Part shown: positions 42,093 to 56,870 of the stretch, one piece after another
How positions within the stretch are numbered: position 1 is the first letter of the stretch
How the letters are laid out: the number at the start of each line of letters is the position of its first letter
Origin: Halobacteriales archaeon QS_1_68_20
GTDB lineage: Archaea; Halobacteriota; Halobacteria; Halobacteriales; PXRE01
Assembly: GCA_003021085.1 (NCBI GenBank)
Contig: PXRE01000005.1
Span: 3,433-67,432, forward strand
Length of the DNA stretch: 64,000 bases
Direction of reading: 5' to 3'
The notes under the pieces: model-generated
The model's database searches: none
What the model saw: the letters and a program-made list of their open reading frames with translations, nothing else
Told to the model about the DNA's origin: nothing
Made by a program: the position numbers and the translations under genes

Positions 42093-42215
42093 CCAGAAAG
42101 CCCCCGCCCGCTCGACCCGTCGGGTCTCGCTGCGCTCCTCGGTCGCTTCGCTCCCTGCGGTGCTTGCGTCGTCCGGGCGGGGTCGAGCGCACGGCCCCTT
42201 TCAGTCCCACCCGAC
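42093..42215. repeat. GC-rich intergenic repeat, family B module
   Basis: ccagaaagcccccgcccgctcgac...tcgctgcgctcctcggtcgc...gcggtgctt...cggcccctttcagtcccacccgac aligns with 56871..57033 in the same orientation. Internal inverted repeat gcccgctcgaccc / ggggtcgagcgc. Confidence 0.6.
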
Positions 42216-42304
42216 GTGGATCGTGCCGGACACCATCGCCTGTGTGAACGGTTCCTCTCGACTCCGCCAGAAGGCTTATCCTCGGTACGTGACGCCTGGA
42301 AGAC

Positions 42305-43585
42305 ATGTCTCCGGCCGGTGGCCGTCCTGGTGTAGGCTCCGAACTCGGTCGGCGGGAGTTCCTCGCGGCGACGGGCCTGGCGGTCGGCGCGTCGCTCGGC
42401 GGGTGTTCGGAGAACCGGGAGACGCCCGAACCCTTGCCGGAAGTCACGGACGGCGACTGGCCGATGGTCCACCGCTCGCGGACCCACCGGCGAACGCTGC
42501 CGGACGCCTCGGCGCCCTCGTCGTCGCCCAGCGAGGTCTGGCGCCGGGAGTTCGACCCGATTGTGAACCGCGTCCTGTCCGTCGGCGACCGCCTGCTGGT
42601 CGGCGTCGGGGCGAGTCTGTCGACCTACGAGACCCGGACCGTCGCGCTGGACCCCGAAACGGGGGAGACCCTGTGGGACCGCCCGGAGCGACTGGGCAAC
42701 GCCGTCGTCGACGGGACGATGGTTCGCGGCGGGTCGGCGGTCGTCGCACGGGATTTAGAGGACGGGGCAGTCCGCTGGCGCCACGAGACGCCGACCGTCC
42801 GGGGTGGCGTCCACGGCGACGTCACGAAGAGCGCCGTCGCCTATCCGCCCGCGGTCCACGACGGGACCGTGTACGTCGCCGTCGGCGCCCCGACGGACAT
42901 CCGGCCGTCTGTCCGGCGCGGGGGGTTGCCGAGGGTCCTCGCCCTCGACCTGGCCACCGGCGAACGCCGCTGGACGTACCGCTTCGAGGAGGGAACGGAG
43001 GGCGTCCTGCCGACGGCCGTGACCGTCGACGCCGACCGCATCTACGTCGCGGACCGGGCACTCGACCCGGCGAGCGGCGAACCCGTCTGGCGCTACCGGG
43101 CGGACGCCGACCGACCGGAGTACGCACCCCCGACGGTCGGGCGGGACGTGGCGTACCTCTACGCCACGGCGAGTCCGTTCGTGGCGGCCGTCGACGCCGA
43201 GACCGGCGAGACGGAGTGGCGGACGGACGCGGTTCCCGCTGGCGCTGACGCGGACTGTCCGGTCACGCTCGCGGACGGCCGGGTGTACTGCGGCGGGGTG
43301 GCGCTGGACGCTGGGACCGGGGACCGCGAATGGAGCCAGTGGGAGCACGCTGGCGTCCACGCGCCCGTGGGCGAACGGACGTACACGGTCAGGCGGACCG
43401 ACGGACTGGACCCGGTGGCGGTCGCGGTGGACGCGGCGACCGGCGAACCGGCCTGGAAGGAGCAGTTGCTCCCGGAGTTCGACCACTCGCGGTTCCTGGA
43501 ACCGCCCGTGGTCGGGGACGGACGGGTGTACGTCGCCGGCAGCGAGGCGAACCAGGTCAGCGGGGCCGTCGCCGCCTTCGAGTAG
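42305..43585 (+). CDS. PQQ-like beta-propeller repeat lipoprotein with Tat signal
   Basis: RREFLAATGLAVGASLGGCS (twin-Arg plus lipobox), then repeated ...D.ETGE..W... blades. Confidence 0.8.
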   Translation: MSPAGGRPGVGSELGRREFLAATGLAVGASLGGCSENRETPEPLPEVTDGDWPMVHRSRTHRRTLPDASAPSSSPSEVWRREFDPIVNRVLSVGDRLLVGVGASLSTYETRTVALDPETGETLWDRPERLGNAVVDGTMVRGGSAVVARDLEDGAVRWRHETPTVRGGVHGDVTKSAVAYPPAVHDGTVYVAVGAPTDIRPSVRRGGLPRVLALDLATGERRWTYRFEEGTEGVLPTAVTVDADRIYVADRALDPASGEPVWRYRADADRPEYAPPTVGRDVAYLYATASPFVAAVDAETGETEWRTDAVPAGADADCPVTLADGRVYCGGVALDAGTGDREWSQWEHAGVHAPVGERTYTVRRTDGLDPVAVAVDAATGEPAWKEQLLPEFDHSRFLEPPVVGDGRVYVAGSEANQVSGAVAAFE

Positions 43586-43685
43586 GAACCGCTCGCACAC
43601 CCGCCGCAAACCGCGTGTCCGGGTCGGTCGCGGTGGCCGTCGCCCGCGACTGTCACCGTCTCCGCGTCGGCAGGTCCCGGCTCGG

Positions 43686-44855
43686 CTACGCTTCCTGCGC
43701 GGACCCGACAGATCGGAGGTCGACGGGGTCGTCCTGCAGGTCGATCACGTGATCCGGCTTCGGTCCGGTCTTGAACAGGCCCAGCTCCGCGTCGGTGTTA
43801 GCGACCACCTCGTCGACCGATCGGAGCCACTCGCGGGTCTCAGGCGTTAGCTCTGCAAACGTGCCGACCCCGTAGTTGTCCACGTCCAGGTAATCGAGGA
43901 ACGTGATGGCGATCTTGTCGGGGTCGTTGAGTTCGATCGCCTCCCGGAACTGCTGCCAGGACCACTCGAAGACGCGCCGGTTGCGTTCGGTCACGCTCGC
44001 GAGCTCGGTCGGCGGCTCGTCGTGGCCGGCACGCTCGGCGATGGTCTCGAAGTCGATCTCCTCGGTGTCCATCGGCCCCGAGTTCTCTCCGGCGCGGATC
44101 GGGTACGTCCGGAAGACGACCCAGACGTCCCGGACCGCAGATGGCGGGAGCCCCGCCGACGAGAGGAACGACGACGCGGTGCAGTCCCGGGAGGTCGTGA
44201 ACGGGTAGTGGTTGCTCTGGTTCATCGAGAGCTGGGTCCCCTGGGTCCCCTCCACGATGACCGACTCGCCCCTGCGGCCGTACTCCAGGAGCCGGCTGGC
44301 GACCCGGCTGTCGACGTACGGCTGTAGTTCCGGACGGTCCTCGGCGAGGTCGGCGCTGCCTGCGCTCCGCCAGATCTTCTCGCTCCGGACCGCCCCACAG
44401 CCGTGAACCGTGGAGCCGATCTCCTCACCGAGACTCCGGTCGCGCTCGAGCTCGCGGTGGCCCTCGTCGATGATCGCCGCCTTCGGGTCGACGTAGATCC
44501 GGTCGCGAGTCCCCTCGCCGTGGAGGTCCACGAGGCGCTCGATCTCGTCCTGGATCTCCCCGAGTCCGAACGAGGATTCGGCGGCCATCAGCAGATCGAC
44601 CTCCGGGTCGACGATGCCGGGCGACGGGATGACCTGCTGGATGTGCGGCGACTCGTCGGCGTCGTAGACGGTGTGACCGGCGTTCGACGAACCGGGGCGA
44701 ACCGCGCCACCGTACTGGTTCCGTCTCGCGAGATGGCCCGCCACTGCACCCTTCCCCTCGCTCCCTGCCTGGCCGCCGACGACGACGTCTGCGAATCCCT
44801 GGGGGGGTTCCGCGATGTTCACGTTCGCTCGAGATTCTGTCCTATCAATTGACAT
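43686..44855 (-). CDS. divergent adenylosuccinate synthetase (PurA) family ligase
   Basis: PurA landmarks are present but altered: P-loop GGQAGSEGKG (canonical GxQWGDEGKG), SNAGHTV, IGSTVHGCGA, EGTQGTQLS, YPFTTSRD, VTERNRRVFEW (canonical TTGRxRRxGW). Confidence 0.75.
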   Translation of the reverse strand: MSIDRTESRANVNIAEPPQGFADVVVGGQAGSEGKGAVAGHLARRNQYGGAVRPGSSNAGHTVYDADESPHIQQVIPSPGIVDPEVDLLMAAESSFGLGEIQDEIERLVDLHGEGTRDRIYVDPKAAIIDEGHRELERDRSLGEEIGSTVHGCGAVRSEKIWRSAGSADLAEDRPELQPYVDSRVASRLLEYGRRGESVIVEGTQGTQLSMNQSNHYPFTTSRDCTASSFLSSAGLPPSAVRDVWVVFRTYPIRAGENSGPMDTEEIDFETIAERAGHDEPPTELASVTERNRRVFEWSWQQFREAIELNDPDKIAITFLDYLDVDNYGVGTFAELTPETREWLRSVDEVVANTDAELGLFKTGPKPDHVIDLQDDPVDLRSVGSAQEA

Positions 44856-44994
44856 TATACCTGACCGTATCCCGCTAATGTCGCGAAGCTATTAATTTTA
44901 ACTAATCTCAAATAGTATTAGGAAGAAAAAATTATTGGCATGGATACACTCGGCGGAACGATACGTGCCGGCCGCGAGCAGGGCCGTTGCGGCC

Positions 44995-45022
44995 GTCCAG
45001 GCCTTCAGGCCCCGGCCTGGAC
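44995..45022 (-). terminator. perfect 9-bp stem hairpin (GTCCAGGCC-N10-GGCCTGGAC) just downstream of the UbiA gene
   Basis: Read directly; located 24-51 nt past the stop at 45046. Function as a terminator is inferred. Confidence 0.35.
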
Positions 45023-45045
45023 GACGAGCTCGGGCCGGACCGTCC

Positions 45046-46086
45046 TCACACGTACACGCCAGCGTACGCCCCCATGAGCGCCAGGAGGTAGACCGCGTTG
45101 ACGATGTCGATCCGGTACAGCGTCGAGACGGTGCTCGTGTCGAAGACGTACAGGACGCCCGACGCGACGATGCCGAGCACGAGGAACCCGGCCAGCGCCA
45201 GCGGGTCCGCAACGCCGAGCAGCACCCCGCCGGCCACGTACGACACCGGGAAGCTCACCATGAGGTACTTGGTCGCGCGCTCGCGGCCCACCTTGACGAC
45301 GAAGTTCTCGACGCCGGACTTGGCGTCGTGTTCGGCGTCCTTGAGGTCCTTGTAGGACATGTTCAGCGCCATGAACAGGAACACGACGGCGGCGAGCCGC
45401 GTCGACTCCGTGGTCGGGGCATCGACGACCGCCGCGCTCCCCAGCAGCACGCCCGCGACGCCCATCAGGCCCGCGGAGACCATGCTGGTGACCACGCCTC
45501 CTTTGAGCCTGATCGGCGGAACCGAGTAGAGGACGTTGATGACGATCATCCAGATGGCACCGGCGACGGCGTACAGGTTGATGGCTGCCGCGAACCCGCC
45601 CCCGGCGATCCAGAGGACGACCGCGGCCACGAACGCCTCCCGGTCGGTCAGCTCGCCCTGGGCGGTCGCCCGGTGGGGGCTGGCGTGTTCGTCGGTCTCC
45701 CTGTCGAAGACGTCGTTCATGAACCACGAACCACACCACGTCAGCGCCAGCGCCCCGGCACCGGCCACGATGGTCGTCGCCGACGGGACCGCGTTCCCGG
45801 TCCCAACCATCTCGAAGACGATGCTGACCGCGAACAGCGCCCAGAATGCGATCACTGCCGACATCATCTTGGCCGTGCGCCTGCCGAGGAGCTTCGCCTT
45901 CCGGGGCTGGGTCACCGCGTACGCTGCGTAGGAGACGCCCAGCACTCCGGTGATCGCACCTACGAGAACCGTCGACGAGATCGGAACGACCGCACTCACG
46001 GCCGGGACACCTCCCACGGCTGATCGACGAGCGCGTCCGAGTCCTCCGGTACCTTCGACATGTCTCCCGATAGCAGCCCTTTCCAT
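45046..46086 (-). CDS. UbiA family membrane prenyltransferase
   Basis: First Asp-rich motif NDVFDRETDEH followed by HRATAQGELT; second motif YKDLKDAEHDAKSG; 8-9 TM helices. Confidence 0.85.
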   Translation of the reverse strand: MERAAIGRHVEGTGGLGRARRSAVGGVPAVSAVVPISSTVLVGAITGVLGVSYAAYAVTQPRKAKLLGRRTAKMMSAVIAFWALFAVSIVFEMVGTGNAVPSATTIVAGAGALALTWCGSWFMNDVFDRETDEHASPHRATAQGELTDREAFVAAVVLWIAGGGFAAAINLYAVAGAIWMIVINVLYSVPPIRLKGGVVTSMVSAGLMGVAGVLLGSAAVVDAPTTESTRLAAVVFLFMALNMSYKDLKDAEHDAKSGVENFVVKVGRERATKYLMVSFPVSYVAGGVLLGVADPLALAGFLVLGIVASGVLYVFDTSTVSTLYRIDIVNAVYLLALMGAYAGVYV

Positions 46087-46127
46087 TTATTGCTTTTCTA
46101 AAATAAATTACCTGTCGTGTTCCCAAA

Positions 46128-46136
46128 CTTTATATT
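46128..46136 (+). promoter_or_regulatory. TATA box (CTTTATATT) about 26 nt upstream of the ATG at 46158, within a 70-bp AT-rich divergent promoter region
   Basis: Spacer 46087..46157 is strongly AT-rich. A mirror box ATTTATTTTA on the minus strand lies about 20-25 nt from the UbiA start. Confidence 0.5.
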
Positions 46137-46157
46137 GTTTGTTGTCACTTCCTCTCC

Positions 46158-47132
46158 ATGGTGTACGTAGGAGTTGATCACTCGACGACTGGCGTGAAAG
46201 TAGGGATACTGGACGGCGACGAGGAGCAAACGGCGTTCACGCTCGACCGGGCCCGCCTCGGGGACGGGAGCGTCACCCTCCTCGACGCGCTCTCCGAGCG
46301 CGTGACCACTGACGCCATCGACCGGGCGGCGATCACCTACAGCTGGGGCAACGGCATCGCGTCCATCCAGGACATCGAGCGGACCGACAATCGGGGGATC
46401 AAGGATCACATCGGCGCGGGGTACGAACTCGGCGGGGGCACTGCCGCCTACGACGAGCTCGAAGCGTCGTCCGTGCCGGCCGTGGTGATCCCGGGGGTCC
46501 ACAGGGAACTCCCACCGCTGCACCCGTACTTCAGCCACTACTCGGCGCTGGCCGGCGGCGACAAGGTGGCCGCGATCCGGTACGCCCAGCACCGACTGGC
46601 CGACGAGACCGACGGCGAGGAGTTCATCTGGGCGTGCGCGAGCTCCTCCTGCATGGCCGGACTCGTCTCCGACGGTGCGCTCCGTGGCTTCTTCCACTGG
46701 ATGGGGCTGATGCATGGGTGGCCCGACCCGGAGGCGTTGCGGGAGATGGACGAGGACCGGGTCGAGGACGTCCTGATGCGGTGTGGCGTTCTCCACCGCT
46801 CGGGCCTGGAGTTCGACGAGATCAGGGAGACGCCCGACGAGCAAGCGATGGAGATGTGCTACTGGGCGACGGTCCACAACATCTACTCCCTGGTGCCGTT
46901 CGCCCACGAGACCGGCGGCGGGCCGCCGGAGGCGATCGCCCTCACCGGACGGTTGACCCGGGTCGACGAGCCGGACCTGTCCGGCCGGGTCGCCGAGACC
47001 TGCTCGGACGTGGCTCCCACCTACCGGTGTGGCGAGTACAGCTCGGCGTACGGAGCCGCCCACGTTGCCCGCGACGTCGACCGCGGCGAACCGGACGTCC
47101 TCGGCATCCCCGTCGCGGAGGGTCTGGCATGA
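46158..47132 (+). CDS. ASKHA-fold (sugar kinase/Hsp70/actin-like) protein, DUF1464/UPF0285-like
   Basis: N-terminal phosphate-1 motif VYVGVDHSTTGVKVGI; 324 aa. Family name recalled, not searched. Confidence 0.55.
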   Translation: MVYVGVDHSTTGVKVGILDGDEEQTAFTLDRARLGDGSVTLLDALSERVTTDAIDRAAITYSWGNGIASIQDIERTDNRGIKDHIGAGYELGGGTAAYDELEASSVPAVVIPGVHRELPPLHPYFSHYSALAGGDKVAAIRYAQHRLADETDGEEFIWACASSSCMAGLVSDGALRGFFHWMGLMHGWPDPEALREMDEDRVEDVLMRCGVLHRSGLEFDEIRETPDEQAMEMCYWATVHNIYSLVPFAHETGGGPPEAIALTGRLTRVDEPDLSGRVAETCSDVAPTYRCGEYSSAYGAAHVARDVDRGEPDVLGIPVAEGLA

Positions 47133-47674
47133 GCCGGATCTTCGTCGCCGGGCCGATCGACTACCGACCGCTGAACGAGGTCGTCGACTACCGGCTGCGG
47201 CTCGCCGACTTGGTGCGGGAGGAGGGGCACTCGCTCGTCGACCAGTACTCCGGCGCCCTCGAACGGGTGGCCGACATCGACTTCGGCGGCGGACCCGTCG
47301 ACCTCGACGAGATCCGGGACGTCATCGCCTCGCTCCCGGACGAGCCGTACGTGGAGGCGCTCAGACACGCCATCGACGAGCACTCGCTGCTCGCAGTGGT
47401 CCAGTCGCCGGGCCTCGTTCCCGAGGAGATGCCGCCAGAGATCGTCGAGGCGCTCGTCCACCGTGACCTCGAGCTGGTCGAGGAGGCCGACGCCGTCCTG
47501 GCGTACCTCCCGCGGCCGTCCTGTGGGACGACGGCCGAGATCGTCCACGCCCACGACCTCGGGCTCCCCATCGTCGTCGTCAGCGAGGAACCGCCCACGT
47601 TCATCCGGTACTACGCCGACGAGGTGCTGACCGACGAGGCCGACGCGATCGCCGCGCTGGAGGACTACGTCTAG
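47129..47674 (+). CDS. nucleoside 2-deoxyribosyltransferase-like (Rossmann-like N-glycosidase/transferase fold) protein
   Basis: ATGA overlap with the upstream gene. MSRIFVAGPI start and LPRPSCGTTAEIVHAHDLGLPIVVV match the family pattern xxGTxxExGxA with the catalytic Glu. Confidence 0.5.
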   Translation: MSRIFVAGPIDYRPLNEVVDYRLRLADLVREEGHSLVDQYSGALERVADIDFGGGPVDLDEIRDVIASLPDEPYVEALRHAIDEHSLLAVVQSPGLVPEEMPPEIVEALVHRDLELVEEADAVLAYLPRPSCGTTAEIVHAHDLGLPIVVVSEEPPTFIRYYADEVLTDEADAIAALEDYV

Positions 47675-47709
47675 GGGCCGGTTCGCACTCGTACACGGGA
47701 ACGTGACCC

Positions 47710-48585
47710 CTAGGGGGTCCTGACGGTGAACGAGAGGCCGCCCCGCTGGTCGCCCGGGAAGTCCCCGTGGTCGTACGCCGCCGCGATCGCGTCGCCGAGC
47801 TCCCGACACCGCTGCTCGGTCTCCGGCGACAGTCCGGCACAGAGGAGGTGTGACCCGACCAGCCCCGGGTCCGTGGAGAGTCCGTGGTTCGCGGGGGCCT
47901 CCAGCGCGAGCTCGCCACACCAGGCCGAACTCGCGTCGTCGAGCTGCTCGCGGACCTCCTCGCGGACGTGCTCCCACCGTCGCTCGATGGCCTCGGCGGA
48001 CTCGAAGCCGTACCACAGCAACGCCACGTCGCCGCGGGCGGCAACGTCGGCGAACAGTTCGATGGGGGTCAGGCCGGCTGGATCCGTCGCCGCGAACGTC
48101 TCGAACGGGTCGACGTGGACGACGTCGGTCCCGTCACCGTCGGCAGCGATGCCAGCAGCCACCCCGGAGAGGCCGTCGGCGGGGACGGCGTTCACCGCCG
48201 ACGAGCAGTCCCGTCTCGACGCTTCCTCGCGGATGGAGTCGAGACACCCGGGGTCGACGTCGAAGAAGTAGTAGTCGGCGGCGTCACCCAGGACGCCCAT
48301 CGCGAGCGCGGGCGACCCCAGGTACGTCTCCGGGTCAGTCCGACTGTCGTTCGCCTCGCTGAACAGCGTCGTGTACGTCGCCGAGTCCAGCGCGGGGACG
48401 TCGCGGCTGCGTGCGAGGTACCGGCCGGCGCCGAACTGGCGCTCGTCGGCTTCGTCCATCGCGTATCTCGCCGCCCCGGCGTGGGTCTCCCAGAACCGGT
48501 CGGGCCGCTCTTCGTCGAGGATCGCACACGTCAGCAGGTGCTTCCAGACGTCTCCGACGTTGCCGAAGTGGTGGTTTCCGATCAT
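47710..48585 (-). CDS. RlmJ-like (DUF519) SAM-dependent methyltransferase-fold protein with altered motif IV
   Basis: ATG at 48585 inside track ORF 47710..49158. HHFGNVGDVWKH, ETHAGAARY, YLGSPAL and LLWYGF parallel E. coli RlmJ. The DPPY position reads DPFE. Confidence 0.6.
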   Translation of the reverse strand: MIGNHHFGNVGDVWKHLLTCAILDEERPDRFWETHAGAARYAMDEADERQFGAGRYLARSRDVPALDSATYTTLFSEANDSRTDPETYLGSPALAMGVLGDAADYYFFDVDPGCLDSIREEASRRDCSSAVNAVPADGLSGVAAGIAADGDGTDVVHVDPFETFAATDPAGLTPIELFADVAARGDVALLWYGFESAEAIERRWEHVREEVREQLDDASSAWCGELALEAPANHGLSTDPGLVGSHLLCAGLSPETEQRCRELGDAIAAAYDHGDFPGDQRGGLSFTVRTP

Positions 48586-50687
48586 GGTTGCTCTCGCAAT
48601 CGAACGACGATGGCGACTGCAACGGCCAGCACCAGAAGGTTGGCGACGAGCCAGGGCGGCACCGGCAGCGACTCGTCCGCCGGCCCGGGACGGTCCGGGG
48701 ACGTGTCCACGCCGGCCGCGTCCGCGTACGCCGACAGCGCCAGCAGCGCTGCCGCCTGGGTCCACGCCTCGTCGACGTACGTTGGCGGAGCGCCCTGGTA
48801 CATGACGGGCGAGGCCGCCCACGAGCCGTCGGGGCGCTGGGTGTCCAGCAGGTACTGGACGCCGGCGCGGACCGCGGGGTGGTCCGGCGAGTACCCCGCC
48901 GCGAGCAACGCCTGCAGCGCCCACGCGGTCTGCTCTGGCGTGGACGGCGCCGACAGGTACTGGGCGTCGTCCCACCCCGGGAAAGTGCCGCCTTCGAGGA
49001 TCCCCTCGCCCCACCCGCCGTCGGGGTTCTGGCGCTCGACGAGCGCGGCGGCGGCCTCCTGGATCTCGGGGCGGTTCGGGTCGACGCCGACGCCGACCAG
49101 TCCCTGGATCACCCTGCTCGTCCCGTAGGTGTACCGCACGCCCCACTTCGCCGGCCACATCTCGGTCCGGTCACGTGCGCCGAGCAGGTAGTCGACGGCC
49201 GCCCTGACGGAGGCGTTGTTCTCGACGGTGTACCCGTGGGCCCCCAGCGACATGAGGACGTGCCCGTTCGTCCCTGGGACCGGCTCGTCGCCGAACAGCG
49301 TGCGGTAGAGGCCTCGGTCCAGCTCCTCACGGAGGTCCGATTGCTCGCTCTCGTTCAGCGGATCGAAGTCGGTCGACCACGTCGACCAGGTTCCGTCCTC
49401 GTTCTGGACGTCGAAGAGGAACGTCACCGAGTCCGCCACGACCATCTCGTCGTACGGCGCGAGGGTCCTGGTCACGACCGCCGTCTCTCCCCAGTTGCTC
49501 TGCAGTTCGGGTTTGTACGACCAGCCGTGGCCGTAGTGGCTGCGGAACGGCAGCGGCGGTCGATCCAGCGTCAGGTTCCTGCGCGTCCGGTAGACGTTCG
49601 TGGTCGTCCTGGCGTCGACCAGCCACTGGGCGGCGTCCTTGACGGTCTCGTTGTCGGGGGACAGTCCCGAGCTCGTCAGCGCCTGCACCGTCCAGGCGGT
49701 GTCCCAGACGGGGGTCCGGAAAGCGACGAACCGGCCGCTCGGGGCCTGCCTGTTCTCCTCCAGCCACCGGGTGGCGATCCGGATCGGGTCGTCGTCGACC
49801 TCGTAGCCCGCCTCGTGGAGCGCCAGTACGGCGTACATCGTGTCGAACGCGGTCGCCCAGGCGCCGCTGGTCTGGCGGCGCTTCAGGAGGACCTCGGTGA
49901 GGGCTTCCTTGGCGTCCTCTTCGTCCGTGGAGACGTTCGAGCGCACCTCCAGCGACAGGACGTTCAGACTGATCATCGTGTCCAGCGCGTTGTGGTTGAC
50001 GGCGTGGTCGGTCGGGGAGAACTCACCCTCGAAGGCAGGCGTCAACAGCAACAGCCCCGGCAGCTCCTTGAGGGTCTCGTTCGGGAACAGCTCCCCGGCC
50101 GAGCGGCGCTCGTCCATCAGCGTGTAGAACAGCCGCGTCCGGTAGAGGAAGATCTCGTCCCTCGGGGTCTCGGCCTCCACGTCGACGAGGCTCGCGTTCG
50201 CCCGGTCGAGTTCGCTGCGGATCGCCCGCCGCTCGGCCTGGTACTCGCCGTCGAGTTCGGACAGCAACAGCAGTCCGGCGTAGTTGGCGATGGTGTCGTT
50301 CCACCCGCCGTCCGGTTGCCGTCGCTGCAGCACGTACTCCACCGCGCGCCGCTTGCTCTCGGAGTCGATGCCCAGTCGCTCGAGTACGAGTGCGTACTCG
50401 ATCGTGTACCTGAGGTCCCAGGGACGCAGCCCGCCCATGGAGATGTTCGACGCCCAGTGGTCGCCGGTCCTGTTGGGGCTGTCGAGGATGTACGACCGGG
50501 AGTCATCGACCGCCTGGGCCACCGCGGTGTCCGTCGGTGAAGCCGCGTCTGCCGGCGAACGAGCCGACGCCTGCGCGATCGGACCGAACTGCGCAGTCAG
50601 AAACAGAACGCAGACGGCGAGTACCTTGACGGTCCCCGTGACTGCGGCCAGCCGGTTCCGTCGCCCGGCCGCTCGCGTACCCTTCAT
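48582..50687 (-). CDS. squalene-hopene cyclase family protein A, membrane-anchored, DxDD motif degenerate (SNWGETA)
   Basis: QW repeats (RRQPDGGWND, VQNEDGTWS, RQNPDGGWGE, TQRPDGSW). C-terminal STPEQTAWALQAL...RAGVQYLLDTQRPDGSW closely parallels bacterial SHC. N-terminal signal/anchor and C-terminal TM. ATGA overlaps on both sides. Confidence 0.8.
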   Translation of the reverse strand: MKGTRAAGRRNRLAAVTGTVKVLAVCVLFLTAQFGPIAQASARSPADAASPTDTAVAQAVDDSRSYILDSPNRTGDHWASNISMGGLRPWDLRYTIEYALVLERLGIDSESKRRAVEYVLQRRQPDGGWNDTIANYAGLLLLSELDGEYQAERRAIRSELDRANASLVDVEAETPRDEIFLYRTRLFYTLMDERRSAGELFPNETLKELPGLLLLTPAFEGEFSPTDHAVNHNALDTMISLNVLSLEVRSNVSTDEEDAKEALTEVLLKRRQTSGAWATAFDTMYAVLALHEAGYEVDDDPIRIATRWLEENRQAPSGRFVAFRTPVWDTAWTVQALTSSGLSPDNETVKDAAQWLVDARTTTNVYRTRRNLTLDRPPLPFRSHYGHGWSYKPELQSNWGETAVVTRTLAPYDEMVVADSVTFLFDVQNEDGTWSTWSTDFDPLNESEQSDLREELDRGLYRTLFGDEPVPGTNGHVLMSLGAHGYTVENNASVRAAVDYLLGARDRTEMWPAKWGVRYTYGTSRVIQGLVGVGVDPNRPEIQEAAAALVERQNPDGGWGEGILEGGTFPGWDDAQYLSAPSTPEQTAWALQALLAAGYSPDHPAVRAGVQYLLDTQRPDGSWAASPVMYQGAPPTYVDEAWTQAAALLALSAYADAAGVDTSPDRPGPADESLPVPPWLVANLLVLAVAVAIVVRLREQP

Positions 50688-50935
50688 ATCCGGGTGACGA
50701 CCAGGTTGTAGACGAACGCGATCACACCTCCCGTGATGGCTCCGTCTACGAACCCGGCGACTGCGCCTGCTACTCCACCCACCAGCGACGGCGCGAAGCC
50801 GGGGTAGTGCGAGGAGAACAGGTCGACGAACGCCTCACCGTGACCGAACATCGCCGCCCAGCCCATGAACAGCATGTAGATCGCCCACATGATGCCGAAC
50901 CCGACGGCGAATCCCTTGATGCTGAGTTTCGACAT
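50684..50935 (-). CDS. small 2-TM membrane protein (83 aa), paralog of 51043..51300
   Basis: Shared pattern YPGFxPxxxGxVAGAxxGFxDGAIxGxxxAxVYN with the neighbour. ATGA overlap with the cyclase-like gene. Confidence 0.6.
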   Translation of the reverse strand: MSKLSIKGFAVGFGIMWAIYMLFMGWAAMFGHGEAFVDLFSSHYPGFAPSLVGGVAGAVAGFVDGAITGGVIAFVYNLVVTRI

Positions 50936-51042
50936 CGGTTACACTCCCGGGCGTCCTGCCCTGTTCGTCGGATCGTTCGAACACCTGCACTGTCGACCGT
51001 TCTGCGTGTTCCGTGCTTCGTGCATCGTATCGTTCCCTCGAT

Positions 51043-51300
51043 CTAGTCGTCCAGGTCCGCTATGCCGTTGTACACAACTGCGAGGATCGCCCCTTTGATC
51101 GCTCCGTCGAGGAATCCCCAGGCTGCACCTGCGACGCTGCCGATCATGGTCGGTCCGAACCCTGGATAGACCGGAGCGATGGCCTCGACGACGAAACTGG
51201 TCCCGGCGTCGGCCGTCGCTGCCAGTCCAGCATACAGCATGAACACCGACCACATGGCACCGAACGCCGCCGCGAAGGACGGTACGTTCAGCCGAATCAT
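51043..51300 (-). CDS. small 2-TM membrane protein (85 aa), paralog of 50684..50935
   Basis: ATG at 51300 (MIRLNVPSFAAAFGAMW) chosen by alignment to the paralog and by a TTTAATAAAT box about 30 nt upstream. The track ORF extends to 51345. Confidence 0.55.
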   Translation of the reverse strand: MIRLNVPSFAAAFGAMWSVFMLYAGLAATADAGTSFVVEAIAPVYPGFGPTMIGSVAGAAWGFLDGAIKGAILAVVYNGIADLDD

Positions 51301-51545
51301 CGATGAGCTAACCAATCTTCCGTGATTTATTAAAACCTTCGACATTTATACGGGCCTCCGCTGAAAAACCCTTCCCCGCGGCCGAGGCGGGGCCTGGGCC
51401 CGCGCTCGTGGTGTCAGAACCGGGATCCCCGGTTCCGTCAGACGGCGTTCTGGCCGTTGTATCCACGACGAACTGCGTTTATTGTACTATCTATTTATTA
51501 GATTAGTAAGGCTTATTGACTTCTGATCGACAACTAGTGAGGGAA

Positions 51546-53576
51546 ATGCTGATCGGCGGAAAGAGAGTGAGCGCAATTGCGTTTGCATTGTTGCTGGTCA
51601 CGTCGATGGTTGGTACGGCGATCACGCTCGGCGTCACCGCGGCGGCGGACTCGGACGCGGCCGGACCATCCGAGGCCGAGGTCCAGCAAGCCGTCGACGA
51701 CTCTCGCCAGCACCTCCTGAACTCGATGGAGGACGACCACTGGGCATCTGCCGTCCGATCGGGCCGAAACGGTATCTGGGACGTCAGGTGGTCGATCTAC
51801 TACGCGGTGATGCTCGAACGCCTGGACGCGAAGCCGAAGAGCCAGCAGGCGGCGATCGACTGGGTGCTCTCGAAACGGAACTCGAACGGTGGGTGGAACG
51901 ACACCGTCGCCAACTACGGTGCGTTGCTACTGTTCGAGGAGATGAACACCGACCAGTACGACGACGTCGTCGCGGACGTCAGGGCAGAGAACCAGCGCAA
52001 CGACATCTCGCTGGTCTCGGGGAACGCCAGTCAGGGCCAGTCGTTCGTGGAGGACAACCTCCGCCTGAAACTCCTGTACGGCCTGATGAGCGACAGATAC
52101 ACCAACGAACAGCTGTTCCAGGACGGCAATCCCGGCGGGTTCGGCGAACTCGGTGGGATGACCCCCGCGTTCGAGAACGGCTTCCACCCGAACAAGTCCT
52201 TCGTCATGCCGGACACGGTCGACCTGACGCTGAGCATGACCACGATCGGTCTGGCCATCGAGCGCGACAACGGGTGGGAGCGAGGCAACAGGAGCGAGGA
52301 GCTGAACCGGACCGCGGAGCTGCTGCTCGCCCGCCGGCTACCCAGCGGCGTCTGGGCGACGTCGATCGACAACATCTTCGCCGTGCTGGCGCTCAACGAG
52401 GCGGGCTACGACGCCGACGACCCCGAGATCTCCCGGGCGCTGGATATGATGGCGGAAACCCGGCAAGCGTCCAACGGCAGGATCATCGGGTTCAAGCTGT
52501 CGGTCTGGGACACCGCCTGGTCCATGCACGCCCTCGTGGAGAGCGGCGTGTCGCCGAAGCACGAGAAGCTCCAGTCCGCGGCGCAGTGGCTCTACGACGC
52601 TCGCGCGTCTCCCCCGTCCCAGAAGCGCGCGGACGTCCCCCTCAAGCGGCCCCCGATCCCGTTCCGCCCGAACTTCGGGAAGGGCTGGGGGTACAAGCCG
52701 CACATGTACAGCGACTGGGACGACACGGCGGTCGCCGTCGTCGCGCTCGAACCCTACGACGACCGCATCGTCGAGGAGCACATCCAGTACCTCTTCGACG
52801 TGCAGAACTCCGACGGTAGCTGGGCCGCGTTCGTGACGGACTTCGAGCCGCTCAACGAGTCCGAGCGCGAGGATGTCATCGAACGAGGCGGCGAGGACCT
52901 GTACGTGCAGCTGTTCACGACCCACCAGTCGCCGGACGTGACCGGCCACGTCCTCAAGGCCCTCGGGTCACACGGGTACACCGTCGAGAACAACGCCTCC
53001 GTCAGGGCGGCCGTCGACTTCCTGATGAACGCCCGCGACGACACCGGCATGTGGCGGGCCGTCTGGGGCAAGGGCTACGTCTACGGGACCAGCCGCGTCC
53101 TCATGGGCATGAAAGCCGTCGGCGTCGACATGAACCAGGCGGCGATCCAGGAAGCTGCGGGGGCGCTCGCTGCTCGCCAGAACCCCGACGGCGGCTGGGG
53201 CTACCGCAACGGTCCCTCGGAGCCGACCTACACCGCCTGGGTCGTCGAGGGGCTGCTCGCGGCGGGGTACTCGCCGGACCACCCCGCGGTCCGCGCCGGC
53301 GTCCAGTACCTGCTGGACACCCAGCGCCCCGACGGCTCCTGGAAAACCACGAAGATGATGCACAACCTGGAGCGGCTGGAGTACAGCCTCTCCGTGTTCA
53401 CGCAAGCCAGCGTCCTGTCGGCGCTGTCAGCGTACGCCGACGCGCGTGGCGTCCCCATCGACCCCGACCACGAATCCAGCCCGCTGGACGACCTCGCGTT
53501 TCCCCTCGCCGTGATCGGCGCCCAGGTCGCGTTCGTCGCGGTCGGGGTGCTGGTCGCCCGTCGGCGTTCGCCCTGA
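51546..53576 (+). CDS. squalene-hopene cyclase family protein B, membrane-anchored, intact DxDDTA motif
   Basis: SDWDDTAVAVVAL at nt 52713..52730 matches the class II terpene cyclase proton-donor motif. QW repeats (KRNSNGGWND, VQNSDGSWA, RQNPDGGWG, TQRPDGSW). N-terminal TM and C-terminal TM plus RRRSP. ATG at 51546 preferred over the TTG at 51516. Confidence 0.8.
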   Translation: MLIGGKRVSAIAFALLLVTSMVGTAITLGVTAAADSDAAGPSEAEVQQAVDDSRQHLLNSMEDDHWASAVRSGRNGIWDVRWSIYYAVMLERLDAKPKSQQAAIDWVLSKRNSNGGWNDTVANYGALLLFEEMNTDQYDDVVADVRAENQRNDISLVSGNASQGQSFVEDNLRLKLLYGLMSDRYTNEQLFQDGNPGGFGELGGMTPAFENGFHPNKSFVMPDTVDLTLSMTTIGLAIERDNGWERGNRSEELNRTAELLLARRLPSGVWATSIDNIFAVLALNEAGYDADDPEISRALDMMAETRQASNGRIIGFKLSVWDTAWSMHALVESGVSPKHEKLQSAAQWLYDARASPPSQKRADVPLKRPPIPFRPNFGKGWGYKPHMYSDWDDTAVAVVALEPYDDRIVEEHIQYLFDVQNSDGSWAAFVTDFEPLNESEREDVIERGGEDLYVQLFTTHQSPDVTGHVLKALGSHGYTVENNASVRAAVDFLMNARDDTGMWRAVWGKGYVYGTSRVLMGMKAVGVDMNQAAIQEAAGALAARQNPDGGWGYRNGPSEPTYTAWVVEGLLAAGYSPDHPAVRAGVQYLLDTQRPDGSWKTTKMMHNLERLEYSLSVFTQASVLSALSAYADARGVPIDPDHESSPLDDLAFPLAVIGAQVAFVAVGVLVARRRSP

Positions 53577-53619
53577 GGTCGCGGTGACCCACCGGGATCG
53601 GCGACAGTAACGCACCGCC

Positions 53620-53900
53620 GTCTTCGCTCGTCGCGCACCGTCTTTTCGTCACTGTTCCATCTCGTCGCACACCGTTCTCCGGCTACCGTCTCTCTCGTCG
53701 CATACCCGCCTCCGATCACCGTCCCTCTCGTCGCGCACCGCTTCTCGTCGTCCTCCCATCTCGTCGTGTCCCGTCTTCTCGTCGCTATTCCGGCTCGCTT
53801 TGCGCCGGCCCCGCCTCGCTATTCCATCCCGTCGTGCCCTGTCCTCTGGTCGCCATTCCATCCCGTCGCGCACCGGCCCCTCCTCGCTGTCCTATCTCTC
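53620..53900. repeat. degenerate tandem array, about 8-9 units of 33-34 bp built on the motif CTCGTCGC(G/A)CACCG
   Basis: CTCGTCG(C/T) occurs at 53627, 53661, 53694, 53727, 53744, 53760 and 53778, with weaker copies to about 53890. Units are contiguous (no spacers). Confidence 0.7.
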
Positions 53901-54003
53901 GACGGGACGCTGTTGACCGCTCCGGAGGAGCTGTTCGTCGGTCGGGGCCTCCGGCCGGTAGAGGACCAGGGGGCAGGGACTTCCGGGACGGCGGTCCAGG
54001 CGG

Positions 54004-54762
54004 TTACTGGTGAACCCGGGTCTTGTGGTGGAACGCCAGCGTCGCGAGGATGGTGGTCGCGCCGAGGTACGCGACGGCCCAGCCGACGTCGGCGGCGGCG
54101 ATCTGCTCGGTGTACGTCGCGTCGAAGGCGATCTGGAGCGGGTAGTACCCAGGGAGGAACGTCATCCAGGCGTCGGGGTTGCCGCGGGTGATCATCGGGT
54201 TCTGGAAGATGAGAATGTCGAGCATCGGTGCGAACAGCATCGCGTACATGCCACCGAGGGTGTTCAGGACCGACCCGACCAGGACGCCGATCATGCCGTA
54301 GGTGAGACCGGCCACGAGCATCGCGACGACGAACCAACCCACGAGCGACGGCGTCAGGAAGAACATCATGACGACCAGCGAGGTCACGATGACCGCCAGC
54401 GAGATGACGCCGAGCAGGACGAGCCGCGAGGTGATGACCTCCCACGATCGGTAGCCGACCAGCACGAGGCGTCCGTCGTTCTCCTCGCCGCTTTGCATCA
54501 TGAACATCCCGGCGATCCCGGCGACCAGCGCACACACCATCGGCGTCATCAGCACGGTGTAGATCTCCGGCATGGGCTTGGAGATCGAGATGACGAGTCC
54601 GTCGACTTTCACCCACAGCGGAATCTCGTCGCCCGGAGCGACGAAGTTGATGAGCGCGATGAAGTAGATGGGAAGGTAGAGTACGAGCGACATGAGGACG
54701 TGGTTGCGGAGGCGTTCCTTGACGCCGACGACGAAGGCGGTGGTGACCCGGTGGTTGCTCAT
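54004..54762 (-). CDS. ABC-2 type transporter permease
   Basis: 252 aa, 6 TM; 4-nt overlap with the upstream permease gene. Confidence 0.75.
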   Translation of the reverse strand: MSNHRVTTAFVVGVKERLRNHVLMSLVLYLPIYFIALINFVAPGDEIPLWVKVDGLVISISKPMPEIYTVLMTPMVCALVAGIAGMFMMQSGEENDGRLVLVGYRSWEVITSRLVLLGVISLAVIVTSLVVMMFFLTPSLVGWFVVAMLVAGLTYGMIGVLVGSVLNTLGGMYAMLFAPMLDILIFQNPMITRGNPDAWMTFLPGYYPLQIAFDATYTEQIAAADVGWAVAYLGATTILATLAFHHKTRVHQ

Positions 54763-55496
54763 TGCAGGACACCTCCGCTACCCTCGCTCATCGCCCGGGA
54801 GAAGACCACGGTAGCGGCCACGAGCAGGACGAGGACGTACAGGACCGCCATCAGCAGGTGGTCGGACTCGACGGTGCCGTCGAACGCGGCAGCTTCGAGG
54901 ACGTGGTGGGAGTGGTACAGCGGGAAGAACTGCGGGAGGATCGATCCCCAGTCGACCAGCCCGCTGGCGAAGATGGTGTCGGAGTCGGCGACGAACACGA
55001 GCGCCAGCGACCCCTCGAGTTCACCCGGGAGGATCGAGCCGATGAGTACGCCGATGAGGCCGTACGTGAACCCGGCCAGCACGAGGCCCCCGAAGGTCAA
55101 CAGCGTAGACTCCGGCGGGTTGAACTGACTGAACACGACGAACGAGACCGTCGCGATGAACGCGCTGACGCCGATGACCGTCGCCAGCCGCGTCGCGAGC
55201 AGGTCCAGCTTCGGGAACCCGGCGATGACGAGTCGCCGGTCGGCGTCGTACGCACCGATGACCTGGAACAGGCCGAACAGGCCGGTCAGGAACGCGGTTG
55301 CGAACATCGCTCCGTTCACCTGGCCGAGTTGCACCGGCGACCGGTCGTCCAGCAGCGAGGCCGGCACCGCTTCCATGGCGATCCCGTACCCCTGGATCAC
55401 CAGCGGCGGGATGACCACGAGCAGCACGACGTTCATCGGGTTCCTGTAGAACGACCGGACGAACACGCGGATTCCCAACGTCCGGTTACTCGTCAT
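54759..55496 (-). CDS. ABC-2 type transporter permease
   Basis: 245 aa, 6 TM; overlaps the ATPase gene by 11 nt. Confidence 0.75.
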   Translation of the reverse strand: MTSNRTLGIRVFVRSFYRNPMNVVLLVVIPPLVIQGYGIAMEAVPASLLDDRSPVQLGQVNGAMFATAFLTGLFGLFQVIGAYDADRRLVIAGFPKLDLLATRLATVIGVSAFIATVSFVVFSQFNPPESTLLTFGGLVLAGFTYGLIGVLIGSILPGELEGSLALVFVADSDTIFASGLVDWGSILPQFFPLYHSHHVLEAAAFDGTVESDHLLMAVLYVLVLLVAATVVFSRAMSEGSGGVLQ

Positions 55497-56163
55497 CAGT
55501 CCCCTCCTCGTGCAGGACTCCCTCCCGGAGCTTGTAGATGCGGTCGAACCGGTCCTGCTCGTTGACGAAGTGCGAGATGATGACGATCCCGGTGCCGCTG
55601 TCGACCAGTTCCTCGGTCAGCTCCCAGAAGGCGAGGTACGTCTCCCAGTCGAACCCGGTGTACGGCTCGTCCAGCAGCAGGACATCGGGGTCGTGCATGA
55701 GCGCGATCCCCAGGTTGACCTTCTGGCGATTCCCACCGCTGAGGTTCTCGACGCGGTAGTCGACGTACTCCTCGAAGTCGAGGCGCTCGGCCATCCGCGA
55801 GACGGCGTCGTCGACCTCCGACTCGGACATCCCGTAGCCCCTGCCGAACAGGTCGAACGTCTCCCGAACCGTCAGTCGGTCGTACAGCAGCGTCTCCTGG
55901 GGGCACCACCCGATCCGCCCGTTACGGTCGACGTTCCCGGCGTCGTGGTTGAGGGTTCCGACGAGGATCTTCATCAGGGTCGACTTCCCGCTCCCGTTCT
56001 CGCCGACGACGCCGACGATCTCGCCGGGATACAGGTCGAAGTCGGTACCGGTCAGCACCTCGACGGTCTGGCCGTAGTGCGGTATCGTCGAACTGTAACT
56101 TTTTTCGATGCCACGCGCTCGAATCACCGGGTTGGTTCCTTCGCTGTTCGTTTTATTCGGCAT
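55486..56163 (-). CDS. ABC transporter ATP-binding protein
   Basis: Walker A GENGSGKST, signature LSGGNRQK, Walker B LLLDEP. ATG at 56163; alternative at 56190. Confidence 0.85.
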   Translation of the reverse strand: MPNKTNSEGTNPVIRARGIEKSYSSTIPHYGQTVEVLTGTDFDLYPGEIVGVVGENGSGKSTLMKILVGTLNHDAGNVDRNGRIGWCPQETLLYDRLTVRETFDLFGRGYGMSESEVDDAVSRMAERLDFEEYVDYRVENLSGGNRQKVNLGIALMHDPDVLLLDEPYTGFDWETYLAFWELTEELVDSGTGIVIISHFVNEQDRFDRIYKLREGVLHEEGTDDE

Positions 56164-56218
56164 TGACCGAATATTTCGAACAAAGCACATTAGGCGTTTC
56201 GGGACGTACTAACGGTTA

Positions 56219-56806
56219 ATGAGCAACGGTGCGGAGACGAACGACACCGGCGCGGTCGACGAGGACAGTTCCGGTGCTGCAGACGACCGTCAACCGGAGG
56301 TCGAAGCAGCCCGCCAGAAAGTAATCGGTGCGATGGAGCGGTCCGCGGAGGTGTACGGCCTCAACCGGAGTTACGGGCGGCTGTACGGGATCCTCTACTT
56401 CCAGGACGACCCCGTGTCGCTGGACGAGTTGACCGACCGCAGCGGCTACGCGAAGTCGACGGTGTCGACGGCGATGAAGAAACTCGAACGGCTCCACCTG
56501 GTCCACCGCAGATCCGTGCCTGGCGAGGGCAAGAAGGCGTTCTTCGAGGCCGAACGGGAGTTCTGGCAGGTCATCCAGGAGTTGCTCCGCCACGAGGTGA
56601 AACGCGAGATCGACATCATGACCCGCGCGCTGGACGAGGCCGAACAGCGACTGGAGGCGGCCGAGGACGAGCGGGCCGAGCAGGACCTGGAGAAGGTCCG
56701 GCACCTCGAACGGATGTTCGGCCGGGGCGAACGCCTGGTGAACGTGCTGACCGGGTCGTCGGTCGAGCGGTTGACTTCGTTGCTGGAGCGGTTGCGGCGG
56801 GAGTAG
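56219..56806 (+). CDS. winged-helix transcriptional regulator (GbsR/MarR-like), divergent from the ABC-2 operon
   Basis: YGLNRSYGRLYGILYFQDDPVSLDELTDRSGYAKSTVSTAMKKLERLHLV is the wHTH core; C-terminal coiled-coil-like region. Confidence 0.7.
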   Translation: MSNGAETNDTGAVDEDSSGAADDRQPEVEAARQKVIGAMERSAEVYGLNRSYGRLYGILYFQDDPVSLDELTDRSGYAKSTVSTAMKKLERLHLVHRRSVPGEGKKAFFEAEREFWQVIQELLRHEVKREIDIMTRALDEAEQRLEAAEDERAEQDLEKVRHLERMFGRGERLVNVLTGSSVERLTSLLERLRRE

Positions 56807-56870
56807 GCGGTCGGATTTCTGTGGTGGAATTCGTTCGGGCGCTCCGTTGGGGTAGCTTTGCCGCCGACAG

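Follow-up and report, generated by a model that had tools for sequence, protein, structure and literature searches.

Squalene-hopene cyclase (SHC) is a cytoplasmic monotopic membrane protein that lacks a signal peptide, and MstE, a cyclase of the meroterpenoid pathways compared below, is likewise cytoplasmic. A 2020 survey of triterpene cyclases found none in Archaea (PMC7306690). The halimadienyl-diphosphate synthases of Asgard archaea are a recent precedent for functional class II cyclases in Archaea (bioRxiv 10.1101/2025.02.07.637177); that report lists archaeal class II diterpene cyclases from several groups, and its main text contains no haloarchaeal sequences. Here, we describe a gene island at positions 43686-56806 of a 64,000-nt stretch (hereafter, the window; overall GC content, 68.8%) from contig PXRE01000005.1 of Halobacteriales archaeon QS_1_68_20. 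The island encodes two SHC-like proteins, cycA and cycB, together with a UbiA-superfamily prenyltransferase, several nucleotide-type enzymes, an ATP-binding cassette (ABC) exporter, and a MarR-family regulator. Our literature searches on haloarchaeal cyclases and hopanoids returned nothing on this family. The cluster is rare, undescribed in the literature searched, and marked by predicted cell-surface SHC-type cyclases, a dedicated exporter, and a UbiA enzyme. A first-pass annotation of the window had proposed a terpenoid or terpene-nucleoside pathway for this region; the SHC-family cyclases and recurrent synteny reported below support this proposal in part, with its “terpene nucleoside” element still hypothetical.

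Two island proteins belong to the SHC family

The genes cycB (51546..53576, plus strand) and cycA (48582..50687, minus strand) encode paralogs that are 46% identical. Both proteins begin with a signal-like N-terminus; cycB ends in a transmembrane helix followed by an RRRSP tail, and cycA ends in a C-terminal anchor. The cycB product is 100% identical to the NCBI protein BRC81_02090, and family members carry the NCBI names “hypothetical” or [quoted passage not shown]. Both match the Pfam family SQHop_cyclase_C (E = 1e-49 for cycA and 1.5e-53 for cycB; 169-182 bits against a cutoff of 26.1). Against two NCBIfam models they fall below threshold: the squalene_cyclas subfamily model, with 155-171 bits for a cutoff of 322.7, and the hopene_cyclase equivalog, with 157-176 bits for a cutoff of 431. 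Weak secondary Pfam matches are to the toroid families TED_complement and Pec_lyase. In a sequence search of the PDB, cycB retrieves SHC at E = 6e-36, with its DWDD motif opposite DVDD. When the search is made with a profile of 23 haloarchaeal homologs, the SHC of Alicyclobacillus acidocaldarius is found at E = 5e-67, far ahead of oxidosqualene cyclase (OSC; 8e-28), drimenyl diphosphate synthase (6e-21), ent-copalyl diphosphate synthase (3e-16), and MstE (7e-11).

The predicted structure points to the same family. The AlphaFold2 (AF2) model of cycB (pLDDT, 85.6; pTM, 0.84) has the two-domain beta-gamma double alpha/alpha-barrel fold, and Foldseek aligns it with SHC (3sqc) across both domains (672 columns; TM-scores, 0.70/0.76; E = 4e-24; 21% identity). 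The Mycobacterium tuberculosis cyclase Rv3377c (6vpt) appears at rank 16 of the same comparison (TM-scores, 0.46/0.62). In sequence, the C-terminal half of the cyclases is about 30-34% identical to bacterial SHCs.

We found that the acid motif and its helper residues are retained in most of the family. Specifically, DWDDTA of cycB aligns with D374-D377 of SHC (DVDDTA), and 21 of the 23 aligned members share DWDDT without change. The columns VTGHVL, VWGKGYVYGT, and SVWDTAW, which hold SHC residues H451, W489, Y495, and W312, are kept in cycB, cycA, and most members. When the alignments are inspected by eye, no conservation is seen in the C-terminal segment of the active site, which in SHC holds F601, F605, Y609, and Y612. 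The acid site of cycA reads NWGET, and that of its ortholog P0171 (62% identical; this and other protein labels, as well as the locus labels L081-L091, L171, and L172, are those of our analysis) reads NWGDT, with the His, Trp, and Tyr helpers retained. With the central Asp missing from P0171 too, its loss is a conserved trait of the cycA lineage rather than a sequencing accident, and the motif suggests either a retained pseudo-enzyme or changed chemistry. Altogether, judged by profile and predicted structure, cycA and cycB are members of the SHC/OSC family of class II cyclases but not squalene-hopene cyclases proper. The profile matches, the PDB sequence search, and the predicted fold thus uphold the SHC-family assignment that the first-pass annotation had made for the two large proteins; its reading of both as class II cyclases holds at the level of family membership but has to be qualified for cycA, which lacks the catalytic Asp (NWGE).

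The cyclases carry predicted export and anchoring signals

A clearly hydrophobic N-terminus (mean Kyte-Doolittle value of at least 1.3) is present in 20 of the 23 cyclase-family members. A motif search flags an RR pair in 11 of these 23 N-termini, about 8 of which resemble twin-arginine translocation (Tat) signals (for example, SRRGLL, RRDFLGG, and RRQVLAA). At the other end, 21 of the 23 proteins have a hydrophobic helix followed by an Arg-rich tail, which in cycB reads ARRRSP; cycA is hydrophobic at both termini. The positive-inside rule predicts an extracytoplasmic catalytic domain that is tethered to the membrane. With its N-terminal signal- or Tat-like segment and C-terminal transmembrane helix, the haloarchaeal family would thus depart clearly from SHC proper, which is cytoplasmic and free of a signal peptide. 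The first-pass annotation had not noticed these signals, and they alter the mechanism to be expected.

The family is rare. Among 1.84 billion representative proteins, about 16 clusters match the cyclase over its full length (>660 bits), and the next scores are at most 361 bits. A scan of GTDB species representatives gave four haloarchaeal loci in three genomes, and a scan of JGI metagenomes gave one more (L091). The next relatives (P0181-P0183, P0189, P0190, P0202, P0208, and P0209) include non-halophilic SHC-like proteins that have both a signal peptide and an anchor at the C-terminus; in several, DxDDT is intact. Three of them are about 1170 aa long and have FtsX/MacB-type permease-like C-termini, and one has a PGF-CTERM-like end. 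Exported SHC-fold proteins tied to ABC transport may, from these sequences, form a wider and unstudied theme.

Cyclase homologs recur beside the same gene families in other haloarchaea

To place the island among its relatives, we compared the neighborhoods of cyclase homologs, with co-occurrence drawn from about 11 loci. In Halocatena marina (L081) and Halorussus caseinilyticus (L082), the cluster comprises an amidohydrolase, an ASKHA-fold protein, a nucleoside 2-deoxyribosyltransferase (NDT)-like protein, an ABC ATPase with two permeases, the cyclase, an MMPL/Patched protein, a polyprenyl synthase, and UbiA. A metagenome contig (L086) has the core genes of these two loci, with UbiA placed upstream. 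The L082 cluster (NZ_CP119811.1, 70437-92518) lies in its entirety on a 185-kb plasmid of cultured Halorussus caseinilyticus. In the second assembly of this species (L083), the amidohydrolase, ASKHA, MarR, and TrmB genes are split, which suggests frameshifts or assembly errors.

Several island genes have orthologs in these clusters. Orthologs of the island UbiA, 37-49% identical, adjoin the cyclase in L081, L082, L085, and L086. The pair of ASKHA and NDT-like genes is found in the window and in L081, L082, and L086, where the NDT-like orthologs (45-49% identical) follow the ASKHA orthologs and the pair is merged into the ABC-cyclase operon. Orthologs of the ABC-2 transporter adjoin the cyclase in the window and in six other distinct haloarchaeal loci (L081, L082, L085, L086, L087, and L089). 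At L171, a cyclase 59% identical to cycB (BLASTP) is followed directly by an ortholog of the island PurA-like ligase (68% identical). The clustering goes beyond chance, since cyclase homologs of other genera are again accompanied by these gene families. The co-localization on which the first-pass annotation had staked its proposal is seen in the syntenic cyclase, UbiA, ASKHA, and NDT-like genes of Halocatena marina, Halorussus caseinilyticus, and L086. It had also counted a weakly RlmJ-like gene and two small membrane-protein genes as cluster parts; this is not supported, as these three genes (g5, g7, and g8 below) stand beside no other cyclase homolog in the loci compared.

The accompanying genes differ between loci. 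An MMPL/Patched/sterol-sensing protein stands directly beside the cyclase in L081, L082, Halorubellus (L088), and L091. A cytochrome P450 gene is found in L087 and L089, together with the orthologous ABC transporter, and in L088, together with a short-chain dehydrogenase/reductase (SDR) and a UbiA of another subfamily. In some loci, the SDR has weak similarity to HpnA and 3-beta-hydroxysteroid dehydrogenase (3-beta-HSD). The L085 locus has two UbiA genes and genes for a methyltransferase, an adenine phosphoribosyltransferase (APRT)-like protein (185 bits; cutoff, 188), and a PurF-like protein 25 nt upstream of the cyclase, with the ABC transporter downstream. The amidohydrolase of Halocatena is of the TRZ/ATZ type, a group whose members include 5′-deoxyadenosine, methylthioadenosine/S-adenosylhomocysteine, and guanine deaminases. 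In the polyprenyl synthases of L081 and L082, Tyr occupies position -5 and Ala position -4 before the first Asp-rich motif, DDLAD, which by the chain-length rules for trans-prenyl synthases suggests a C15-C20 product.

Two sets of window genes were considered as counterparts of these relatives and rejected. The 485-aa amidohydrolase at 40389-41846 is of the Amidohydro_3 type and has no more than a weak 60-aa match to the 486-aa amidohydrolase of the Halocatena cluster. The 342-aa and 870-aa open reading frames (ORFs) at 15300-18987, considered as polyprenyl synthase and MMPL, encode instead a PAS histidine kinase and a TPR/STAND protein.

Genes for a putative ABC-2 exporter and a MarR-family protein extend the island

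Downstream of cycB lies a minus-strand ABC operon (54004-56190) that is convergent with it and encodes an ATPase and two permeases. The ATPase (55486..56190) matches Pfam ABC_tran at E = 7e-29 and has orthologs that are 55-68% identical. The permease M1 (54759..55496) has orthologs 41-46% identical in the same loci as those of M2 (54004..54762), which are 30-41% identical; M2 matches Pfam ABC2_membrane_3 weakly. In about 160 bacterial SHC loci that we fetched, the best ATPase matches are only 29-32% identical, and no transporter of comparable similarity was found there. Divergent from the ABC operon, on the plus strand, is a MarR-family regulator (56219..56806; Pfam MarR_2), an ortholog of which, 64% identical, is present in the Halorussus cluster. 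The island therefore spans 43686-56806, beyond the nine genes originally named: the first-pass annotation had let it end at the tandem repeat that follows cycB, and the ABC-2 exporter and MarR genes at 54004-56806 belong to it too.

A UbiA prenyltransferase and divergent nucleotide-type proteins

The membrane prenyltransferase g2 (45046..46086, minus strand) is a confident UbiA-superfamily member (Pfam UbiA, E = 1e-25; 90.6 bits against a cutoff of 34.2). Both of its Asp-rich motifs, already noticed in the first-pass annotation, are present (NDVFDRETD at residue 124 and DLKDAEHD at residue 247). Since g2 reaches no NCBIfam equivalog cutoff, it belongs to no named UbiA subfamily; the nearest models are the archaeal prenyltransferase, ChlG (chlorophyll synthase), and digeranylgeranylglyceryl phosphate synthase. 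Its PDB match to AfUbiA (4tq3) has an E value of 4e-6.

The first gene of the island, g1 (43686..44855, minus strand), encodes a PurA-like ligase (Pfam Adenylsucc_synt, E = 9e-38) with a Ser-type P-loop, GGQAGSEGKG. Its best PDB match is the PurA of Pyrococcus horikoshii (E = 7e-48). In NCBIfam, it falls short of two models, reaching 251.5 bits for archaeal PurA, where the cutoff is 368, and 230.9 bits for PurZ, where it is 300. At the same position, the P-loop reads GSEGKG in g1, GDEGKG in P. horikoshii PurA, and GSTGKG in the PurZ of cyanophage S-2L. The Asp that Ser replaces in g1 is the catalytic Asp13 of PurA (Escherichia coli numbering). This GSEGKG P-loop is shared by 114 of the 120 g1 homologs among the matches listed (P0024-P0143). 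By its P-loop and its score below the equivalog cutoff, g1 is not PurA proper; nor is it PurZ, as it scores under that cutoff too and has no phage or datZ/mazZ context, standing among cluster genes of cellular type in a window that is otherwise ordinary chromosome. The g1 family is large and cross-domain, with about 47 close haloarchaeal metagenomic members, and its distant bacterial relatives (Sorangium and Agrobacterium) are fused to AAA_33 or AAA_18 kinase domains.

Divergently from g2, g3 (46158..47132, plus strand) encodes an ASKHA-fold ATPase/kinase-like protein, 100% identical to the BRC81_02060 protein. It scores 167.4 bits against TIGR03281 (methanogenesis marker 12; cutoff, 180.85), and its AF2 model (pLDDT, 85.8) has butyrate and acetate kinases as the best Foldseek matches (TM-scores, 0.55-0.62). 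Because of the TIGR03281 score and this confident model, the ASKHA fold of g3, as first annotated, is confirmed, with no Pfam match at hand. Our literature search on methanogenesis marker 12/DUF1464 found nothing functional. The following gene, g4 (47129..47674, plus strand), is coupled to g3 by an ATGA overlap and encodes an NDT/Rcl-like protein with a weak Pfam Nuc_deoxyrib_tr match (24.5 bits, under the cutoff of 28.8) and a match to PHROG 355 (E = 5e-6). Its PDB matches to Rcl and NDT are weak (E = 0.3-0.4), and the Glu of SCGTTAEI stands opposite the Rcl segment SLGVGYEL. The Glu noted in the first-pass annotation is thus present, and the resemblance to the NDT/Rcl fold is weak.

The last gene of the cycA operon, g5 (47710..48585, minus strand), is weakly RlmJ-like and may have an N6-adenine methyltransferase fold. 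Residues 5-160 match RlmJ of the PDB at E = 2e-5. The HxGNxxDVxKH motif is conserved, and DPFE stands at the position of the catalytic tetrad, which in RlmJ-type enzymes reads DPPY. Neither Pfam nor NCBIfam gave a match for g5. The two-helix membrane proteins g7 (50684..50935, minus strand; 83 aa) and g8 (51043..51300, minus strand; 85 aa), the latter encoded by the first gene of the minus-strand operon, are paralogs with 47% identity. They score 72.5 and 67.3 bits, respectively, against NCBIfam NF037947 “holin_4” (cutoff, 70). A role as phage holins is not supported, since PHROGs gave no match for either. For g3, g5, g7, and g8, Pfam returned no match even at E = 5.

Island layout and putative control elements

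The nine ORFs of the first-pass annotation lie at the coordinates and on the strands it had given, with ATGA overlaps, also as described there, at g3/g4 (47129-47132), cycA/g5 (48582-48585), and g7/cycA (50684-50687). It had called three spacers extremely AT-rich. This is true of two of them, 44881-44940 (GC content, 27%) and 46087-46157 (32%), against 68.8% in the window, but not of 51301-51545, because this spacer has a GC content of 52% overall, with AT-rich ends and a GC-rich center. The TATA-like boxes that it had placed 20-31 nt from the starts are found within this range for g3 (-29) and g2 (-21); those of g8 (-33/-34), g1 (-40/-46), and cycB (-52, or -22 from an alternative TTG start) lie farther upstream.

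In the GC-rich center of the divergent g8/cycB spacer, at 51417-51435, is a palindrome with perfect 8-bp arms, GAACCGGG-ATC-CCCGGTTC. The window holds a single copy (0.08 expected, with up to three mismatches), which is a candidate operator, for example, for MarR, or a candidate hairpin. The ends of cycB and of the ABC operon, which converge, are separated by 427 nt in which GC skew drops to about -0.4. This gap is filled by a degenerate, C/T-rich tandem repeat (53627-53888) that can be described as 4.7 copies with a period of about 33 nt or 2 copies with a period of 68 nt (72-76% matches). The repeat may be a terminator or spacer region, and an Rfam search of 40000-58000, which includes it, found no RNA family.

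ARAGORN found no tRNA in the window and, therefore, no tRNA-flanked island signature; the island flanks within the window hold neither a tRNA nor an integrase. A megablast of the island against PLSDB plasmids gave no match, and the matches of the protein-mode search were the Halorussus plasmid and bacterial shc genes only. The remainder of the window looks like ordinary chromosome, with genes for Orc1/Cdc6, iPGM, SDRs, a PAS histidine kinase, and an 870-aa STAND-NTPase/TPR protein (including 16375-18987 and 21196-22323).

A proposed pathway with cyclization at the cell surface

What the sequences show is the cyclase fold and its motifs, predicted signals for export, and synteny that recurs; from these we infer the chemical steps and their order, the substrate, the direction of transport, and the acceptor of the pathway proposed here. 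We give an even chance to the view that the island is a secondary-metabolite-type cluster for a cyclized isoprenoid, with cyclization at the outer face of the membrane. The donor would be a short polyprenyl diphosphate, probably C15-C20, for which some relatives have a polyprenyl synthase of their own. At the inner face of the membrane, the UbiA-family enzyme would move the chain onto a small polar acceptor. In the window, the enzymes that might make or trim this acceptor are the PurA-like ligase with its Ser-type P-loop, the ASKHA ATPase, and the NDT/Rcl-like N-glycosyl enzyme, possibly joined by the RlmJ-like methyltransferase; in other versions of the cluster, the acceptor might come from the nucleoside-deaminase-like amidohydrolase or from the APRT-like and PurF-like proteins. 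The ABC-2 transporter would then flip or export the amphipathic prenyl conjugate, perhaps assisted in relatives by the MMPL/HpnN-like pump. Exported and anchored by its C-terminus, cycB would protonate a terminal double bond with its DWDD acid and cyclize the chain, a reaction that is cofactor-free and, therefore, possible outside the cell. In this scheme, cycA would be a non-canonical or non-catalytic partner, and MarR would control the gene set.

The notion of a purine acceptor arises because three purine-type enzyme sets, all of them divergent paralogs, occur in three cluster architectures. The TRZ/ATZ-type amidohydrolase and the APRT-like and PurF-like proteins found elsewhere make the nucleotide theme, as read from these sequences, stronger than the first-pass annotation could know. 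The deaminase type and the PurA type act in opposite directions at purine C6. The purine link of the cluster is recurrent but unproven, and we regard a purine acceptor as plausible, if on balance doubtful. In its most specific form, the proposal is that a Tat- or Sec-secreted, anchored SHC-type cyclase acts at the cell surface on an exported prenylated purine or other conjugate to give polycyclic terpenoid-purine lipids or signals. We put this forward tentatively, as an unlikely outcome; if true, no extracytoplasmic class II terpene cyclization would precede it, and SHC-type cyclase chemistry would be shown for the first time in Archaea.

Several observations weigh against the proposed pathway. 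The PurA-like family also occurs in a locus (L172) that has no cyclase and instead has PNP_UDP_1, IU_nuc_hydro, and an AAA kinase, and the ASKHA gene is solitary in Halosimplex, where no conserved context was found; because of these occurrences, the PurA-like and ASKHA genes are not exclusive to the cluster. Within reach of the cyclase in L087, L089, and L090, there is neither a UbiA ortholog nor a purine-type gene, and the sole UbiA of L088 belongs to another subfamily. The window itself contains neither a polyprenyl synthase nor an MMPL protein. In addition, the topology of the cyclases is predicted from sequence only, the product and activity of the island are hypothetical, and the NDT-like and RlmJ-like assignments lie under curated thresholds. 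A cytoplasmic P450 beside an extracellular cyclase would demand an assumption about the order of steps. Lastly, the nearest structural relative of the modeled cyclase is a squalene cyclase, which would favor a triterpene substrate.

Alternative explanations

That last point leads to an alternative in which the substrate of the SHC-like enzymes is squalene or some other isoprenoid abundant in the membrane (a polyprenol, for instance, or the tail of a menaquinone), taken directly from the bilayer and cyclized to hopanoid-like or tricyclic lipids, with the UbiA and purine genes unrelated or serving another step. Bacterial SHC is the nearest match in both sequence and structure, haloarchaea make squalene via an acquired Sqs (PMC7306690, PMC8237579), and an HpnN-like MMPL/Patched/sterol-sensing transporter adjoins the cyclase in four loci. 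The P450 and the SDR with weak HpnA/3-beta-HSD similarity of some loci, and the lack of a UbiA ortholog in others, fit this alternative as well. However, the cyclases score far under the hopene-cyclase equivalog cutoff (157-176 versus 431 bits) and do not conserve the C-terminal active-site segment of SHC, five loci have an orthologous UbiA, two have a dedicated polyprenyl synthase of the short-chain type, and the window holds no squalene synthase, a search that did not extend to the whole genome. We consider a squalene-type substrate rather unlikely. A different alternative is that the large proteins are not cyclases at all. They might share no more than the SHC fold and serve, after export, as alpha/alpha-toroids with a binding or structural role, or as enzymes whose substrate is not a terpenoid. 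The weak TED_complement and Pec_lyase matches, the loss of the acid motif in cycA, and the exported SHC-fold proteins of unknown role that are common in the representative library, some as FtsX-like fusions, would be in keeping with such a role. It is hard to reconcile with DWDDT in 21 of 23 members, with the retained equivalents of H451, W489, Y495, and W312, and with terpenoid neighbors such as UbiA, polyprenyl synthase, P450, and MMPL, which make it very improbable in our view.

A further alternative accepts a true terpenoid cluster of cyclase, ABC transporter, UbiA, and MarR and regards the purine-salvage-type genes beside it as unrelated, in which case the acceptor would be non-nucleotide, for example, an aromatic acid or a quinone. 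The known pairings of UbiA with a class II cyclase do take aromatic acceptors (the MstE family, PDB 6sbb, and the ebo/thallusin preprint), the L172 homologs of the PurA-like ligase stand in a purely nucleoside-metabolic context, the Halosimplex ASKHA gene stands alone, and the NDT-like and RlmJ-like assignments are weak. We nevertheless hold it to be unlikely: purine or phosphoribosyl enzyme sets appear three times in three architectures, frequently sharing an operon with the cyclase, and all of these sets are divergent paralogs that score under housekeeping cutoffs.

Implications

We note that the proposed cluster for a cyclized isoprenoid is carried by cultured hosts, Halocatena marina and Halorussus caseinilyticus, so that its product and role are directly testable. 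A cofactor-free protonation cascade is among the few biosynthetic reactions workable outside the cell, and class II cyclase chemistry would be new to the outer membrane face, the location predicted here. If cyclic isoprenoids are made, this would bear on archaeal membrane biology, on the natural products of halophiles, and on the reading of evaporitic cyclic terpane biomarkers. Hypersaline deposits commonly contain cyclic terpane biomarkers, tricyclic ones among them, whose biological source is not known. Should regular polyprenyl chains indeed be cyclized, such enzymes would be a candidate source of these compounds.

Comparison with known systems

The SHC of A. acidocaldarius (1sqc/2sqc/3sqc) shares with the haloarchaeal enzymes the two-domain fold, the DxDD acid with its His, Tyr, and Trp helpers, and QW-type repeats. 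In contrast to it, the haloarchaeal enzymes are predicted to be exported and anchored by a transmembrane helix, their C-terminal active-site segment is divergent, their neighbors are not of the hpn type, and cycA lacks the acid. HpnN, the MMPL/RND protein of hopanoid export, has a parallel in the MMPL/Patched protein that adjoins the cyclase in Halocatena, Halorussus, Halorubellus, and L091. However, the window has the ABC-2 transporter only, and archaea have no outer membrane to supply. As for g1, its fold is that of PurA, with a short archaeal PurA as the nearest PDB entry, and its Ser-type P-loop resembles that of S-2L PurZ; it differs from both in scoring under their cutoffs, in its lack of phage context, and in belonging to a large cellular GSEGKG family.

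In logic, the closest systems are the bacterial meroterpenoid pairings of UbiA with a class II cyclase, namely, MstE/merosterolic acid (6sbb) and ebo/thallusin (bioRxiv 10.64898/2026.05.21.724671). In these, a membrane UbiA joins a prenyl diphosphate to a polar acceptor, and a protonation-initiated cyclization of the tail follows. MstE is a single-domain protein of about 365 aa, whereas cycB is two-domain, SHC-like, and predicted to be exported. The accompanying genes of the meroterpenoid pathways are of the aromatic-acid or cyclitol type, whereas those of the haloarchaeal cluster are purine-type and in an archaeal host.

The precedent invoked by the first-pass annotation was that of M. tuberculosis, in which Rv3377c and Rv3378c make 1-tuberculosinyladenosine. 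It is apt as an analogy of logic, in that a class II cyclase is linked there, and possibly here, to a purine nucleoside. It does not extend to the proteins: the haloarchaeal cyclases are SHC-like rather than Rv3377c-like, and no Pfam or NCBIfam match to the cis-prenyltransferase fold of Rv3378c was found in any island gene, so that no transferase of that type was found and prenyl transfer would be by UbiA. The order and place of the reactions would differ as well. The 1-tuberculosinyladenosine and Asgard systems, both of them analogies only, cyclize geranylgeranyl diphosphate in the cytoplasm before transfer, whereas in the haloarchaeal cluster cyclization is predicted to come last and outside the cell.

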